Positions 3,152-9,281 of a stretch of 64,000 nt of DNA are shown here, in pieces (position 1 is the first letter of the stretch; each line of letters begins with the position of its first letter). Below the pieces are notes generated by a model. The model was not told the DNA's origin. It ran no database searches and saw nothing but the letters and a program-made list of their open reading frames with translations. Source of the stretch: Escherichia phage vB_EcoM_SA21RB; sequence record OL960580, one strand, 5' to 3'. Made by a program: the position numbers and the translations under genes.

Positions 3152-3550
3152 CTATTTCATTTTTGCGAGACAGATTTCATTGGCTTCCCATTGAGCTTGC
3201 TTAATAATAGCTTTGGATACAGGAACCTTTTGACCATAAGTTTTTGATGTTGAGAGAACAATATATTTGTTTGCCTCATTATGCCAACCCCATGATTTTT
3301 CGCCATGAGTACCTTTAACTACAGCTGACACCTCAACAGAACAACCATCAGCTCCAATCTTGGTATCCACAATCCATTCATTTCTCTCGGCAGCTTCATT
3401 TTCCGACCTCATTTTTTCTTCATACACGGCGGCCCAATCAGTTTTTGTCAAGCTTAAACTAAGAGCTTTCTCTAATTCTTTGGCAGCTTTTTGTTGTTCG
3501 GGTGTTAATGAATTATATAACTCTCGCATTTCTTTATCTTCAATATTCAT
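3152..3550 (-). CDS. hypothetical protein (position of T4 e.7)
   Basis: ORF track; GAGGAGAA SD upstream of ATG. Confidence 0.6.
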   Translation of the reverse strand: MNIEDKEMRELYNSLTPEQQKAAKELEKALSLSLTKTDWAAVYEEKMRSENEAAERNEWIVDTKIGADGCSVEVSAVVKGTHGEKSWGWHNEANKYIVLSTSKTYGQKVPVSKAIIKQAQWEANEICLAKMK

Positions 3551-3881: not shown

Positions 3882-3912
3882 GTTGTTTTCTGTATCAGTA
3901 GTTGATAGTTGT

Positions 3913-3942
3913 ATAGTACCATGGAAGAACAGGGATGTAAAC
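3913..3942 (-). promoter_or_regulatory. T4 early-type promoter (-35 GTTTAC, 18-nt spacer, -10 TACTAT) with A/T-rich upstream element
   Basis: Minus-strand GTTTAC-N18-TACTAT; near-identical module recurs at 8177-8206 and 8543-8572. Confidence 0.55.
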
Positions 3943-4075
3943 CGTTTTGTGAAAAATTTTTTAAAAAGTTTTAGAGAATTCTAGGGAGGGAAGGGGCAAT
4001 TAAAGGATAGGATAATATATTATAAAGGGTAGAAACTAAATGATGCCTAGAGAGGTCCAGAAAGGTCTAGATGCC

Positions 4076-4100
4076 AAAAAGCCCTATCATTTAGATAGGG
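4076..4100 (-). terminator. rho-independent terminator downstream of internal protein gene
   Basis: Stem CCCTATC/GATAGGG with loop, followed on minus strand by a U-run. Confidence 0.55.
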
Positions 4101-4108
4101 ATTTAAAA

Positions 4109-4672
4109 TTATTTATCTAGTTTAGTTATTATAGCTTCTGCGGCAGCTTTTAGCTTAGATGCGGTGTTAATACGATTTTTAATTTCAGTATACGCATCGC
4201 CAAGAACATCAAGGCTATCAGAATAAACACTTACACTATTGCGTTCGCTATTTGAAATAGAACCTTTAGTTTTACGATCAAAATCGGTGTACACGTCTTG
4301 AAGATCACGGGCTGCCTTCTTTGCATCATCCAATGCGTCAAGAGCTTTATTCAAAGCATTAACGTATTTTTTAGTGTCAAACATATTCTTAGAAATTTTA
4401 ACAGGTGCGCGTTCAGGAGTAGCTAATGTAGATTTAGGAACCTGAGCGCCAGATGCCAATTTCTTAGAAATTTTGAAAAACGCTTTATTGAATTTATTTT
4501 CTTGACTCATCGTAAAAGAACTATTATCGATGTTGTACATTTCAATAGCTTTAGCTTTCCACTTAAGAAAATCGCCGCGGTCTTTTGGGTCCAAGTGGAA
4601 GAATACTTTAGTAAGATCTGCTTCAGATGGTAATTTTGCTGCTTCGGTTAAAAATTCGGCATAGGTTTTCAT
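4109..4672 (-). CDS. capsid internal protein with N-terminal capsid targeting sequence (IPIII-like)
   Basis: ORF track; N-terminus MKTYAEFLTE matches the T4 internal-protein leader cleaved by gp21 after L-x-E; AAGGA SD. Confidence 0.6.
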   Translation of the reverse strand: MKTYAEFLTEAAKLPSEADLTKVFFHLDPKDRGDFLKWKAKAIEMYNIDNSSFTMSQENKFNKAFFKISKKLASGAQVPKSTLATPERAPVKISKNMFDTKKYVNALNKALDALDDAKKAARDLQDVYTDFDRKTKGSISNSERNSVSVYSDSLDVLGDAYTEIKNRINTASKLKAAAEAIITKLDK

Positions 4673-4760
4673 TTAAAATCCTTGAAATAATTTATCAGTT
4701 GGTTATTAATTATTTATTACTTTGTTATTATCCGTAACAGCATTCTCTATGTGATTCAAA

Positions 4761-4788
4761 CTAAAAAGCCCAACCTTTCGGTTGGGGC
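4761..4788 (-). terminator. hairpin terminator (GCCCAACC-TTTC-GGTTGGGGC); near-identical copy at 5321-5347
   Basis: Inverted repeat followed by U-run on minus strand. Confidence 0.5.
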
Positions 4789-4796
4789 TAAGAATG

Positions 4797-5270
4797 TTAT
4801 TTGATTTGTTTAGCAGACCAAATGCGGTCTTTGATGATTTTTTGAATGTCTTCAACATACTCTAGGTCATGAGCATGTGGGTTATCTTTGAAACTATAGG
4901 CACGGGCTAACTTTTGGCCTTCGGTTTTGATTACTAAAAGCTCTTTAAGGATAGCTTCATACTTAGCGATAATTCCTTTAACAATATTTTTTTCTTGTGT
5001 AGCTTTAGGATCTGCTTTAGGAGCAGGTTTACCCGAAGCCTTTGCAAAAGCAGCACCAGTAGCAACTAAACTTTTCCAGGCCATACTAACCGCATTTCCC
5101 GTAAATCCTTCTGCTTTCATGTCGCGAGCAAATTGGAATCGTGATTCGTCAGAAGCATCTTTATAGGAATATTTACCTGCTGCAATGGCTGCTTTTGCGA
5201 CAGCTTGAATTTCGGTGCTAGATGCTTCATTTAACACCGCTTCATTTAAAAATTGAGCATATGATTTCAT
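4797..5270 (-). CDS. capsid internal protein with capsid targeting sequence, Ala/Lys-rich basic cargo
   Basis: ORF track; N-terminus MKSYAQFLNE (leader-like); late promoter and AGGAAA SD upstream. Confidence 0.55.
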   Translation of the reverse strand: MKSYAQFLNEAVLNEASSTEIQAVAKAAIAAGKYSYKDASDESRFQFARDMKAEGFTGNAVSMAWKSLVATGAAFAKASGKPAPKADPKATQEKNIVKGIIAKYEAILKELLVIKTEGQKLARAYSFKDNPHAHDLEYVEDIQKIIKDRIWSAKQIK

Positions 5271-5310
5271 CTTATTTCCTGTTTTAATTCGTAGATTTAA
5301 TATACTACTA

Positions 5311-5318
5311 TATTTATA
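5311..5318 (-). promoter_or_regulatory. T4 late promoter TATAAATA upstream of internal protein gene
   Basis: Exact reverse-complement TATAAATA about 40 nt upstream of ATG at 5270. Confidence 0.55.
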
Positions 5319-5320
5319 CT

Positions 5321-5347
5321 AAAAAGCCCCAACCTTTCGGTTGGGGC
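5321..5347 (-). terminator. rho-independent terminator at 3-prime end of the tRNA/stable RNA operon
   Basis: 9-bp GC-rich stem GCCCCAACC/GGTTGGGGC, TTTC loop, U-run on minus strand. Confidence 0.6.
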
Positions 5348-5350
5348 TAA

Positions 5351-5664
5351 GCCTTGCGGCAACCTTGTCGGGGTTCCACCTGCTAAGGCAAGTGTTTGTA
5401 CGAAACGCCGGGATTCGAACCCGGTTATTAAGCAGTTGACGCTACTTAATATTTTTAAAAGGCCATATCTCGACCATATCCGAACGTTCCGTCAAAAACG
5501 CTACTCGGCTTACGGCAAAGATATTTCCTCGAATCGATAATTCGGTGCGCCGTTTCTGCTGTGGTGTAAGGGGATATTAATAAATCGTAAAGATTTATTA
5601 AGACCAGTCCTTACGCAGGGAACATCAGTCCGACGACTTACCGGTAGCGACCCGGTTTCTTGTT
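5351..5664 (-). ncRNA. structured stable-RNA region downstream of tRNA-Arg, containing a tRNA-like domain; probable counterpart of T4 stable RNAs C and D
   Basis: No ORF; tRNA-like T-arm CCGGG-TTCGAAT-CCCGG with pairing acceptor arms CGGAACG/CGTTTCG plus several further hairpins; boundaries not determined. Confidence 0.35.
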
Positions 5665-5740
5665 TGGTCGAGGCAGTAGGGATCGAACCTACGACCTAGG
5701 ACTTAGAAGGTCCTTGCTCTTCCTTCTGAGCTATGCCCCG
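5665..5740 (-). tRNA. tRNA-Arg (anticodon UCU)
   Basis: Manual cloverleaf: acceptor CGGGGCA/TGCCTCG, anticodon loop CTTCTAA, T-loop TTCGATC, CCA encoded. Confidence 0.8.
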
Positions 5741-5744
5741 TAAT

Positions 5745-5820
5745 TGGGGTGACCGATGGGAGTCGAACCCATGACTACGAGAATCACAATCTCGAGTTCT
5801 ACCAACTGAACTACGGCCAC
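5745..5820 (-). tRNA. tRNA-His (anticodon GUG)
   Basis: Manual cloverleaf: acceptor GTGGCCG/CGGTCAC, anticodon loop TTGTGAT, T-loop TTCGACT, CCA encoded; no encoded G-1. Confidence 0.6.
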
Positions 5821-5934
5821 ATTAATACCTACTCCAACAATCAAGATGTCTTCACACGAAATTAAGAGAAGAGTGATCAGTTCAACCCCGATAATCGCGT
5901 CAAGTAGATATTAATGTGACAGTTGTCACAAATT

Positions 5935-6009
5935 TGGCGGACGTGATAGGATTCGAACCTATAACCAATCGCTTAACAGGCGATCGCTCTGCCATTGAGC
6001 TACACATCC
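5935..6009 (-). tRNA. tRNA-Asn (anticodon GUU)
   Basis: Manual cloverleaf: acceptor GGATGTG/CACGTCC, anticodon loop CTGTTAA, T-loop TTCGAAT, CCA encoded. Confidence 0.7.
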
Positions 6010-6013
6010 AAAT

Positions 6014-6100
6014 TGGTGGGGAGTGATGGAGTCGAACCACCCGAGTCGCAATGACAATGGATTTACAGTCCACACCGCTACCTCTACGGGATAACTCCCC
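6014..6100 (-). tRNA. tRNA-Tyr (anticodon GUA), class II with long variable arm
   Basis: Manual fold: acceptor GGGGAGT/ACTCCCC, anticodon loop CTGTAAA, T-loop TTCGACT, 87 nt, CCA encoded. Confidence 0.65.
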
Positions 6101-6113
6101 TTAATTCTTAATT

Positions 6114-6188
6114 TGGTGGCCCTGGGTGGAATTGAACCACCATCTGGCGATTATGAGTCGCTTGCTTGAACCTTCCAGCTACAGGGCC
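6114..6188 (-). tRNA. tRNA with anticodon CAU; by position the T4 tRNA-Ile (lysidine type) homolog, Met not excluded
   Basis: Manual cloverleaf: acceptor GGCCCTG/CAGGGCC, anticodon loop CTCATAA, T-loop TTCAATT, CCA encoded. Confidence 0.7.
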
Positions 6189-6189
6189 T

Positions 6190-6265
6190 TGGTGCTGATT
6201 GACGGAATCGAACCGCCGACCTTCTCATTACAAGTGAGTTGCTCTACCTACTGAGCTAAATCAGC
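6190..6265 (-). tRNA. tRNA-Thr (anticodon UGU)
   Basis: Manual cloverleaf: acceptor GCTGATT/AATCAGC, anticodon loop CTTGTAA, T-loop TTCGATT, CCA encoded. Confidence 0.8.
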
Positions 6266-6270
6266 AAAAC

Positions 6271-6360
6271 TGGCGGAGGCGATAGGATTTGAACCTATGA
6301 GTCGCCGGAGCGACTGCCGGTTTTCAAGACCGGTGCATTAAACCACTCTGCCACGCCTCC
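6271..6360 (-). tRNA. tRNA-Ser (anticodon UGA), class II
   Basis: Manual fold: acceptor GGAGGCG/CGCCTCC, anticodon loop CTTGAAA, long variable arm, T-loop TTCAAAT, 90 nt. Confidence 0.8.
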
Positions 6361-6362
6361 AG

Positions 6363-6436
6363 TCTCCATACAAGGATTTGAACCTTGGACCTCCTGATCC
6401 CAAATCAGGCGCTCTACCAAACTGAGCTACACGGAG
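6363..6436 (-). tRNA. tRNA-Pro (anticodon UGG), CCA not encoded
   Basis: Manual cloverleaf: acceptor CTCCGTG/TATGGAG, anticodon loop TTTGGGA, T-loop TTCAAAT; 2 nt from tRNA-Ser, consistent with a dimeric precursor. Confidence 0.75.
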
Positions 6437-6446
6437 TAAATTAAAT

Positions 6447-6520
<74 letters not shown>

Positions 6521-6525
6521 AAATT

Positions 6526-6612
6526 TGGTGCGAGAAGTGGGACTCGAACCCACAAGGAAATCATTCCGCAGCATTTTAAGTGCTGTGCCTTTACCAATTT
6601 GACCATTCTCGC
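6526..6612 (-). tRNA. tRNA-Leu (anticodon UAA), class II
   Basis: Manual fold: acceptor GCGAGAA/TTCTCGC, anticodon loop CTTAAAA, long variable arm, T-loop TTCGAGT, CCA encoded. Confidence 0.8.
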
Positions 6613-6613
6613 G

Positions 6614-6686
6614 CTGGGAATAAAGGACTCGAACCTTTGCATCCTGGAATCAAAATCCAGTGCCTTACCAACTTGGCTAATTCCCA
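6614..6686 (-). tRNA. tRNA-Gln (anticodon UUG), CCA not encoded, 1 nt from tRNA-Leu
   Basis: Manual cloverleaf: acceptor TGGGAAT/ATTCCCA (U1-A72), anticodon loop TTTTGAT, T-loop TTCGAGT. Confidence 0.8.
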
Positions 6687-6772
6687 ATTATTAACAAAGG
6701 CTCTCTAACAAGAACCCTTGATGATATAGGGTATTAATCAGTGCGGTATGAGTTAATAATAACAAATAATTC

Positions 6773-7288
6773 TTAAAGCAAATTAAACATCTTAACGGTC
6801 GGCAAAACAATTTCTTCTTCTATATAAGAGTATTTAACACTCTCAACTACACGCAAAAAATCATAATCATAATATTCAGAAGCACTGCCTAAAATATTAA
6901 TAAGTCCTTCAAGCACTTTATTACCATTCACAAAGAATAAGTCAAATACACGTTCTTCGTCTTCTTCGGATTTATTACCAAGGTCAACTTCTATATCAAA
7001 GACCTTTTTAATGAATTCTGGATAAAGCTGGTCTGAGAACAGTCCTTCAACCAAGTATTCATAGATAAAAAGCGATTGCTCGCTGAACAAACCATTACCG
7101 CAATAACGTTCAACTTTTGTGCTAGAATGTCTGCTTTTAAACTTCTTTAAAAGATATTGGAATTGTAAGATTTCATGCTCTTCTACGCCAAACAGTGTTT
7201 TAGTTTTATAGTTGTCACCATCATTTTCCCAGGTAGTGACATCAATTACGTAACCCTGCGGAATTGTAGTACCTAAACAAATATTCAT
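6773..7288 (-). CDS. hypothetical strongly acidic protein, early region
   Basis: ORF track; about 20 percent Asp/Glu; no recognisable motif. Confidence 0.5.
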   Translation of the reverse strand: MNICLGTTIPQGYVIDVTTWENDGDNYKTKTLFGVEEHEILQFQYLLKKFKSRHSSTKVERYCGNGLFSEQSLFIYEYLVEGLFSDQLYPEFIKKVFDIEVDLGNKSEEDEERVFDLFFVNGNKVLEGLINILGSASEYYDYDFLRVVESVKYSYIEEEIVLPTVKMFNLL

Positions 7289-8224: not shown

Positions 8225-8512
8225 TTACAAAAGATTTTTAGCAATAATCTTGAGATGTGCCGCAGAAATGTGTTTAGCTTTAAACAACGCAGTTTCTTCA
8301 GCAGGAGAGATAACGATTGTAGCACCATCCTTTTTAGCAGACCACCCATCGCCTAGGTAAACAGTACCTTTGATTTCTTCGCCATCAACCAGACTAATCA
8401 TTGGTTTACCTTCTCGTCCTTTATTTGCTTTAATAACTTCAGAAGTAAGAGTAGCTTCGGTAATAGTAGAAACCGGGGTAGTTGTAGAAGTAAATTCTTT
8501 GAAAGTTTTCAT
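8225..8512 (-). CDS. ipI: internal protein I precursor (95 aa; 19-aa capsid targeting leader plus 76-aa mature IPI*), injected anti-restriction protein
   Basis: ORF track; leader MKTFKEFTSTTTPVSTITE ends in a gp21 I-x-E cleavage motif; 95/76 aa lengths and position next to 57B match T4 ipI. Confidence 0.8.
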   Translation of the reverse strand: MKTFKEFTSTTTPVSTITEATLTSEVIKANKGREGKPMISLVDGEEIKGTVYLGDGWSAKKDGATIVISPAEETALFKAKHISAAHLKIIAKNLL

Positions 8513-8542
8513 TTTATTTTCCTAATTAATTTTGATGAGATA

Positions 8543-8572
8543 ATAGTATCACTACCTCATCAACGTGTAAAC
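8543..8572 (-). promoter_or_regulatory. T4 early-type promoter upstream of ipI (GTTTAC-N18-TACTAT)
   Basis: Minus-strand -35/-10 elements about 30 nt upstream of ipI ATG. Confidence 0.55.
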
Positions 8573-8584
8573 AACTTTGTGAAA

Positions 8585-9281
<697 letters not shown>

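Follow-up and report, generated by a model that had tools for sequence, protein, structure and literature searches.

The internal proteins (Ips) of the T-even phages are delivered ahead of any phage gene expression, and two of them, IPII and IPIII, were long assumed to be core or DNA-condensing fillers. Ip1, Ip2 and Ip3 are inhibitors of GmrSD-type type IV restriction enzymes, a different one for each, and those who reported this expect as much of other Ips (PMC12373910). Ip4–Ip7 and other polymorphic T-even Ips were described by Repoila et al. in 1994 (cited in PMC12373910). Here we analyze 64,000 nucleotides of Escherichia phage vB_EcoM_SA21RB (sequence record OL960580; the whole of this stretch is hereafter referred to as the window), a Tequatrovirus (T4-like) genome in which two open reading frames (ORFs) of 157 and 187 residues begin with a leader of the Ip type. 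Taken together, the results make it probable that the two ORFs encode unnamed members of the T-even Ip class, which would be targeted to the capsid, injected and most likely used to disarm a host defence.

The leader has been dissected in IPIII (MKTYQEFIAE), where mutagenesis assigned targeting mainly to residues 4 and 7 and processing to residues 8 and 10 (Mullaney and Black 1996, summarised in PMC9026906). The 10-residue T4 leader alone is enough to package foreign proteins (PMC9026906). A second described system that bears on the locus is the promoter-early stem-loop (PeSL) cassette, by which T4-type phages shuffle modules (Arbiol et al. 2010, PMC2839356; Comeau et al. 2014, PMC4122927). 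That T-even phages have polymorphic, leader-bearing internal proteins is knowledge dating from 1994, and the direct repeat that surrounds one of our two genes is already in a GenBank record. What appears to be unrecorded, in annotations and in the openly searchable literature, is that two ‘hypothetical’ genes, both widespread, encode the capsid-targeting leader, and that they occupy a third site, in terminator-bounded cassettes of the late-promoter type.

Capsid-targeting leaders on the two ORFs

The 187-residue ORF (positions 4109–4672) and the 157-residue ORF (4797–5270) both lie on the minus strand, and their products begin MKTYAEFLTE|AAKLP... and MKSYAQFLNE|AVLNE|ASS..., respectively, with bars at the predicted cleavage points. 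An earlier note, made from the letters of this DNA alone, had described ORFs of these lengths starting MKTYAEFLTEA and MKSYAQFLNEA, had read the N-termini as T4-type capsid-targeting leaders with an L-x-E site, and had called the 157-residue protein basic and Ala/Lys-rich. All three statements agree with our results. Tyr4, Phe7, Leu8 (Ile in T4) and Glu10 followed by Ala are present in both MKTYAEFLTE and MKSYAQFLNE. Positions 8–10 form a site of the type recognised by the prohead protease gp21, (L/I)-x-E followed by a small residue, which reads L-T-E|A in the 187-residue and L-N-E|A in the 157-residue protein and at which cleavage is predicted. In the mapped residues and in the (L/I)-x-E|A site, the two leaders are like those of T4 IPI, IPII and IPIII and of Ip4–Ip7.

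To assess how specific this feature is, we scanned the N-termini of every Met-start ORF of at least 40 residues, on both strands of the window, for the pattern MK[ST][YF]xxF. Three of the 562 candidates had it, namely the 157-residue ORF, the 187-residue ORF and the orthologue of IPI (8225–8512, minus strand; Pfam IPI_T4, E = 7e-54 over residues 20–95; phrog_4363, internal virion protein), the last of which served as the internal positive control. The leader on the two ORFs is not a product of chance. Relatives of the 157-residue protein in Klebsiella and Yersinia phages also keep it: with the cleaved Glu counted as position 1 and the numbering running backward, positions 7, 4, 3 and 1 are an aromatic residue, Phe, Leu and Glu, respectively, and these leader residues are kept while the nucleotides differ. 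The isoelectric points of the mature proteins are 9.46 (187-residue ORF) and 9.40 (157-residue ORF), compared with 9.0–9.65 for the T4 IPs, and both mature proteins are rich in Ala and Lys (18% and 14%, respectively, in the 157-residue protein).

We hold with good confidence that both are capsid-targeted internal proteins. Each would be made late in infection. By established T4 biology, the 10-residue N-terminal leader would then take the protein into the prohead core, gp21 would cut the leader off after Glu10, and the trimmed protein would be carried in the head and injected along with the DNA. In the 157-residue protein, gp21 may cut after Glu15 too. By analogy with Ip1–3, the injected protein would most likely disarm a host defence, for example a GmrSD-type type IV restriction enzyme.

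The leader region of the 157-residue ORF (residues 8–17; 5226–5255, minus strand) contains a five-codon tandem duplication, FLNEA-VLNEA (DNA repeat TTAAATGAAGC). The duplication gives the protein two L-N-E|A protease-type sites, the second at residues 13–15; the homologues in phages VEc20 and SF have one site of this type. In two IMG/VR phage genomes (L015, 221–719; L018, 2–500), two more short leader-bearing ORFs, of 74 residues (MKTYQEFITEAKRHEDE...) and 90 residues (MKSYQEFITESILNEE...), precede the 157-family gene by about 1.8 kb and may represent additional Ip variants.

Mature sequences and relatives of the two proteins

When compared by BLASTP with T4 IPII, T4 IPIII and T2 Ip4, the two proteins aligned through the leader alone, plus a weak 37-residue stretch of IPII (E = 0.001) that was driven by the leader. 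After removal of the leader, neither ORF gave a BLASTP match to IPI, IPII, IPIII, Ip4, Ip5, Ip6 or Ip7, nor did the 157-residue and 187-residue proteins match each other. BLASTP of the two complete proteins found only the 11–12-residue leader in common, and a profile–profile comparison of their families (hhalign) aligned the 12 leader columns and nothing else. Alignment to IPII, IPIII and the other T-even Ips, which the earlier note had proposed as a check, has thus returned the leader and, once that is removed, no match. Because the leader is all that is shared in these comparisons, neither ORF is IPII or IPIII, and neither is a duplicated gene. The two proteins are unlike the described T-even Ips in that their mature sequences match none of IPI, IPII, IPIII and Ip4–Ip7; they are like them in that the mature parts are mutually unrelated.

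Both proteins, over their full lengths, match phrog_2280, a family annotated ‘unknown function’. Paralogy of the two ORFs, as first read from this match, is ruled out by BLASTP, hhalign and leaderless BLASTP. We ascribe the shared match to the leader together with a similar helix, linker and helical-hairpin layout, and not to demonstrable homology. T2 Ip4, likewise 157 residues long, was considered as a relative of the 157-residue protein and proved to be unrelated to it.

In Pfam, both proteins had nothing but helical noise below the threshold. AlphaFold modelled the 157-residue protein as all-helical (predicted local distance difference test score, pLDDT, 71), with a confidently predicted small N-domain at residues 18–71, a disordered Pro/Lys/Ala linker and, at the C-terminus, a helical hairpin. 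The model of the 187-residue protein has a similar predicted layout at low confidence (pLDDT 60). Foldseek searches of the PDB and BFVD brought up nothing beyond close homologues or matches with E > 0.8, and sequence profiles had no meaningful match in the PDB.

Basic, Ala/Lys-rich, predicted helical proteins with a flexible Pro/Lys linker could also be dispensable core or DNA-condensing proteins, which are packaged by their leader to fill the head or neutralise charge and have no anti-defence role; the structure and profile searches, which found no similarity to a known inhibitor, are in line with this. We nevertheless consider such a role unlikely. All three tested T4 Ips turned out to be specific restriction inhibitors (PMC12373910), and presence/absence polymorphism combined with allelic mosaicism, as described below, is typical of arms-race genes and not of structural fillers. 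Since the three T4 Ips inhibit different GmrSD-type enzymes, uncharacterised leader-bearing proteins are candidates for anti-defence factors, and the 2025 finding that Ip2 and Ip3 also inhibit such enzymes (PMC12373910) makes an ‘injected effector’ function of our two proteins more plausible by analogy. That both are anti-restriction effectors is a proposal we make tentatively, on the strength of this analogy.

The 157-residue family is represented in 511 phage records, which cover Tequatrovirus, Mosigvirus and distant relatives in Klebsiella and Yersinia T4-like phages. The distant relatives (L007, 2495–3028; L019, 2501–3037) keep the leader and the N-terminal domain (residues ~15–90, including an AGKYSYKD motif) and have an entirely different C-terminal half, which indicates that domains have been shuffled within the family. 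The 187-residue family (164 phage records) is nearly invariant and lineage-restricted; its divergent relatives are RB69ORF149c (88%, 146 residues) and a 22%-identical protein in phage fHe-Yen9-01. The two genes are adjacent in 127 records. Like the T-even Ips, the two proteins are small, basic, dispensable and patchy among close relatives, being absent from T4, T2, T6 and PST and present elsewhere singly or together.

Among the matches listed, all relatives of the 187-residue protein are annotated as hypothetical, and those of the 157-residue protein as hypothetical, phage protein or unknown function. The latter include the orthologue RB51ORF140 (gene name RB32ORF132c; 96.8% identity). The records of RB32ORF132c/RB51ORF140 and RB69ORF149c, hypothetical or uncharacterised, do not mention the capsid-targeting leader, and literature searches on Ip8–10 and on RB32ORF132c gave no usable result. 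The two genes are present in hundreds of Tequatrovirus isolates, therapeutic and environmental, that have been sequenced. Recognising both products as probable Ips may help explain host-range differences among near-identical phages.

Two chimeric database proteins (P0024 and P0025) are found among the relatives of the 4109–4672 product. In one, the C-terminal half of the 187-residue protein is joined to an N-terminus like that of the 132-residue ORF of the window (3152–3550); in the other, its middle segment is joined to the C-terminus of NudE. These chimeras imply deletions that link the 187-residue gene to genes 1–4 kb away, in other genomes or assemblies.

Terminator-bounded cassettes between rnaC and e.8

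All genes around the two ORFs are on the minus strand. Read in that direction, the order is the IPI orthologue, accessory ORFs, 11 tRNA genes, an rnaD/rnaC homologue, hairpin B, the 157-residue ORF, hairpin A, the 187-residue ORF, hairpin C and an e.8 homologue. The two leader genes are thus placed between the rnaC terminator and e.8, a third site unlike the 57B–trna.4 and denV–e locations of the known ip genes. In T4, e.8 and rnaC are about 285 bp apart, with no gene in between in the T4 annotation. Region 3900–5500 has 98% identity to Shigella phage SH-2, Citrobacter phage CrRp10 and Escherichia phage G50.

Hairpins A, B and C each combine a G+C-rich stem, a short loop and at least five T residues, as is typical of Rho-independent terminators, and are predicted to terminate minus-strand transcription. 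Hairpin B (5326–5347, or 5325–5348 as a terminator site, within the repeat unit 5318–5351, CTTAGCCCCAACCGAAAGGTTGGGGCTTTTTAGT on the minus strand) would be the terminator of the tRNA/rnaD/rnaC operon. Its stability is -20.6 kcal/mol (z -4.2), its score is terminator-like, and it has a counterpart after rnaC in T4, T2, T6 and PST, where the site is empty. Hairpin A (4769–4786, minus strand, within the repeat unit 4760–4792) would terminate the 157-residue cassette; its sequence is nearly that of hairpin B, short of one G in the 3′ arm, and its stability is -13.5 kcal/mol. The two repeat copies, of 34 nucleotides (5318–5351) and 33 nucleotides (4760–4792), are one deleted base apart in sequence and 558 bp apart in position, and on the minus strand both consist of a G+C-rich stem followed by CTTTTT. 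The repeat has these two matches in the window, against none expected. The GenBank record of RB51 describes its orthologue of the 157-residue gene as ‘flanked by 34 bp imperfect direct repeat’. Hairpin C (4082–4100, minus strand), the putative terminator of the 187-residue cassette, consists of CCCTATCTAAATGATAGGG plus CTTTTT; its stem sequence is unrelated to those of hairpins A and B, and the T4-type backbone (GGCATCTAGACCTTTC...) picks up directly after its T-tract. In one of the contigs compared below (L017), the loop of hairpin C is reverse-complemented (ccctatcATTTAgataggg vs ccctatcTAAATgataggg) while the stem is unchanged, which suggests an inversion or strand-switching inside the hairpin.

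The earlier note had each gene adjoining the same hairpin and each gene followed by a copy of it. The shared hairpin is real, as the 34/33-nucleotide repeat attests, but a copy lies 3′ of the 157-residue gene only; the 187-residue gene is preceded by the repeat and ends in hairpin C. The note had gone on to suggest that a gene-plus-terminator unit had been duplicated. The duplicated hairpin and the full-length phrog_2280 matches of both proteins would suit an origin of the two genes as IPII/IPIII-type paralogues by tandem duplication of such a unit, and yet this explanation is refuted, and we give it hardly any credence. The proteins have the leader in common and nothing after its removal, neither is homologous to T4 IPII or IPIII, each gene is found alone in other phages, the 187-residue gene ends in a different hairpin, and the duplicated terminator brackets the 157-residue gene.

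We compared the site in T4, T2, T6, PST, RB51, VEc20, SF, CT01, G50 and nine IMG/VR contigs. In the empty site (T4, T2, T6 and PST), rnaC and the hairpin are followed by TTTTT|GGTATCTAGGCC... and then e.8. Phages with the 157-residue cassette alone (RB51, VEc20, SF and others) have the hairpin, TTTTT|(A/G)GTATAAATA, the gene, a second copy of the hairpin and TTTTT|GGTATCTAGG.... CT01, with a 187-type cassette alone, has the hairpin, TTTTT|AGTTTGAATCAC..., the gene, hairpin C and TTTTT|GGTATCTAGG.... The two cassettes stand in tandem in the window, in G50 and in two of the contigs (L012 and L013), and in L017 the 187 cassette accompanies a Mosigvirus-type allele of the 157-residue gene. The break-points all coincide with the end of a terminator T-tract, ...GGGCTTTTT|, and each gene can on that account be regarded as an independent module behind the previous terminator. 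These terminator-to-terminator break-points provide a simple example of single-gene module swapping in T-even phages.

Each module is made up of a late-promoter-like motif, a Shine-Dalgarno sequence, the ORF and its own intrinsic terminator. Upstream of the 157-residue ORF, by 48 nucleotides, TATAAATA (5311–5318, minus strand) matches the T4 late-promoter consensus exactly; this predicted promoter comes directly after the T-tract of hairpin B. RB51, VEc20 and the Klebsiella phage M198 homologue have it in the corresponding position; phage SF has AATAAATA. The 187-residue ORF has AATAAATA, a 7/8 match to the consensus, 46 nucleotides upstream (4711–4718, minus strand). In all six 187-gene loci aligned, (A/G)ATAAATAATTAATAACC is kept with its surrounding block, the CT01 version being GATAAATA. 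Both motifs would, to judge from their sequence, act as late promoters, and late timing suits a prohead component. Transcripts of the 187-residue gene could alternatively come from read-through of hairpin A, the weaker one. A sigma-70 scan of the region found seven sites against 6.5 expected, which is background, and no strong early promoter of this kind lies beside hairpin A or B.

We also compared the 110 nucleotides upstream of the described ip genes (window ipI, 8513–8622; T4 ipI, ipII and ipIII; T2 ip4, ip5 and ip7; T6 ip6; L001, L008 and L009). All seven, ipI, ipII, ipIII, ip4, ip5, ip6 and ip7, are preceded by a GTTTAC-N17-TAnnAT early-type promoter overlapped by a palindrome of about 10 bp, a PeSL-like composite. 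Unlike these canonical genes, the two cassettes have the late-type TATAAATA or AATAAATA upstream.

The cassettes resemble PeSLs in that G+C-rich stem-loop terminators of the GGGG...CCCC type flank small accessory ORFs and coincide exactly with indel break-points, and in that direct repeats could excise a gene. They are unlike PeSLs in having a late-type motif where PeSLs have a strong early promoter, sigma-70-like and with an AT-rich upstream element, and in that the resident terminator of a tRNA/stable-RNA operon forms one of the repeats. The hairpins, and for the 157-residue gene the 34-bp direct repeat of the rnaC terminator, would supply short homology for the gain, loss and recombination of cassettes among T-even phages; the repeat around the 157-residue gene could serve to insert the gene or to delete it. 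In a Klebsiella T4-like phage, tRNA genes, hairpin, TATAAATA and 157-residue homologue are arranged as they are here, and for this reason the family may be old at the site. The gene may be ancient there, and recombination of one repeat with the other may have removed it from T4, T2 and T6. More speculatively, the site between the rnaC terminator and e.8 might be a third T-even hotspot for injected proteins, served by late terminator–promoter cassettes as a late counterpart of the PeSL, whose occupants inhibit defences not yet tied to any Ip, such as additional subtypes of GmrSD/BrxU or systems of another class.

Virion data, points of doubt and neighbouring genes

Phage fD1 (HE956711) encodes a protein, g140, that is 98% identical to the 157-residue protein. 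It was scored as particle-associated by LC-MS/MS at a strict threshold, as a protein with no T4 homologue (Skurnik et al. 2021, PMC8309999, Table S3). The purified virions came from a low-stringency preparation, in which DenV, lysozyme e, NudE and 672 host proteins likewise counted as particle-associated (PMC8309999). The detection shows that g140 is expressed and co-purifies with the particles, but not that its place is inside the capsid.

Several points weigh against the view that the two ORFs encode injected Ips. Because DenV, lysozyme, NudE and host proteins were scored along with it, the detection of g140 gives weak support to a place within the capsid. A literature search for virion proteomes of phages with the 187-residue gene gave no data on its product, whose packaging, processing and injection we deduce from the sequence. 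Both genes lie outside the two recognised ip loci (57B–trna.4; denV/vs.8–e), a location that we regard as a positional habit of the known genes and not as a mechanistic requirement. The GTTTAC-N17-TAnnAT promoter with its palindrome is missing from both cassettes, and the AATAAATA of the 187-residue gene is off consensus at the first base. Finally, neither the predicted fold nor the similarity searches point to a target.

Some of these facts would suit a different explanation, in which the leader-like N-terminus would be a module shared for translation initiation or recombination, with the proteins acting late in the cytoplasm and not being encapsidated: the genes are outside the known ip loci and have a different upstream regulatory sequence, the fD1 proteome is unspecific, and virion data on the 187-residue protein did not emerge from the literature search. 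We regard this explanation as distinctly improbable. Conservation is at the amino acid level, at exactly the four functionally mapped positions and with differing codons; besides IPI, no further ORF in the 64 kb has the leader; and the 10-residue T4 leader by itself packages foreign proteins (PMC9026906).

As for the neighbouring genes, the e.8 homologue runs from 3881 to 3606 (minus strand). In T4, ipII and ipIII lie between denV and e, and the equivalent spot would fall beyond the low end of the window. The homologue of the T4 stable RNAs rnaD and rnaC (5348–5660, minus strand), upstream of hairpin B, has a close likeness to the T4 rnaD–rnaC region throughout the overlap of the two sequences; in an Rfam scan of 4000–6800, tRNAs were the only matches. 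The tRNA genes run from 6686 to 5665 (minus strand). The window is without segB, and also without the 351-nucleotide ORF (like RB69ORF150c) that G50, RB51 and T2 have between tRNA-Arg and rnaD. The 11 tRNA genes of the cluster (5665–6686) compare with eight in T4 (L001, 7174–8531), the additional ones being those for His, Asn and Tyr, and a tRNA with the CAT anticodon, called Met, stands in place of tRNA-Ile.

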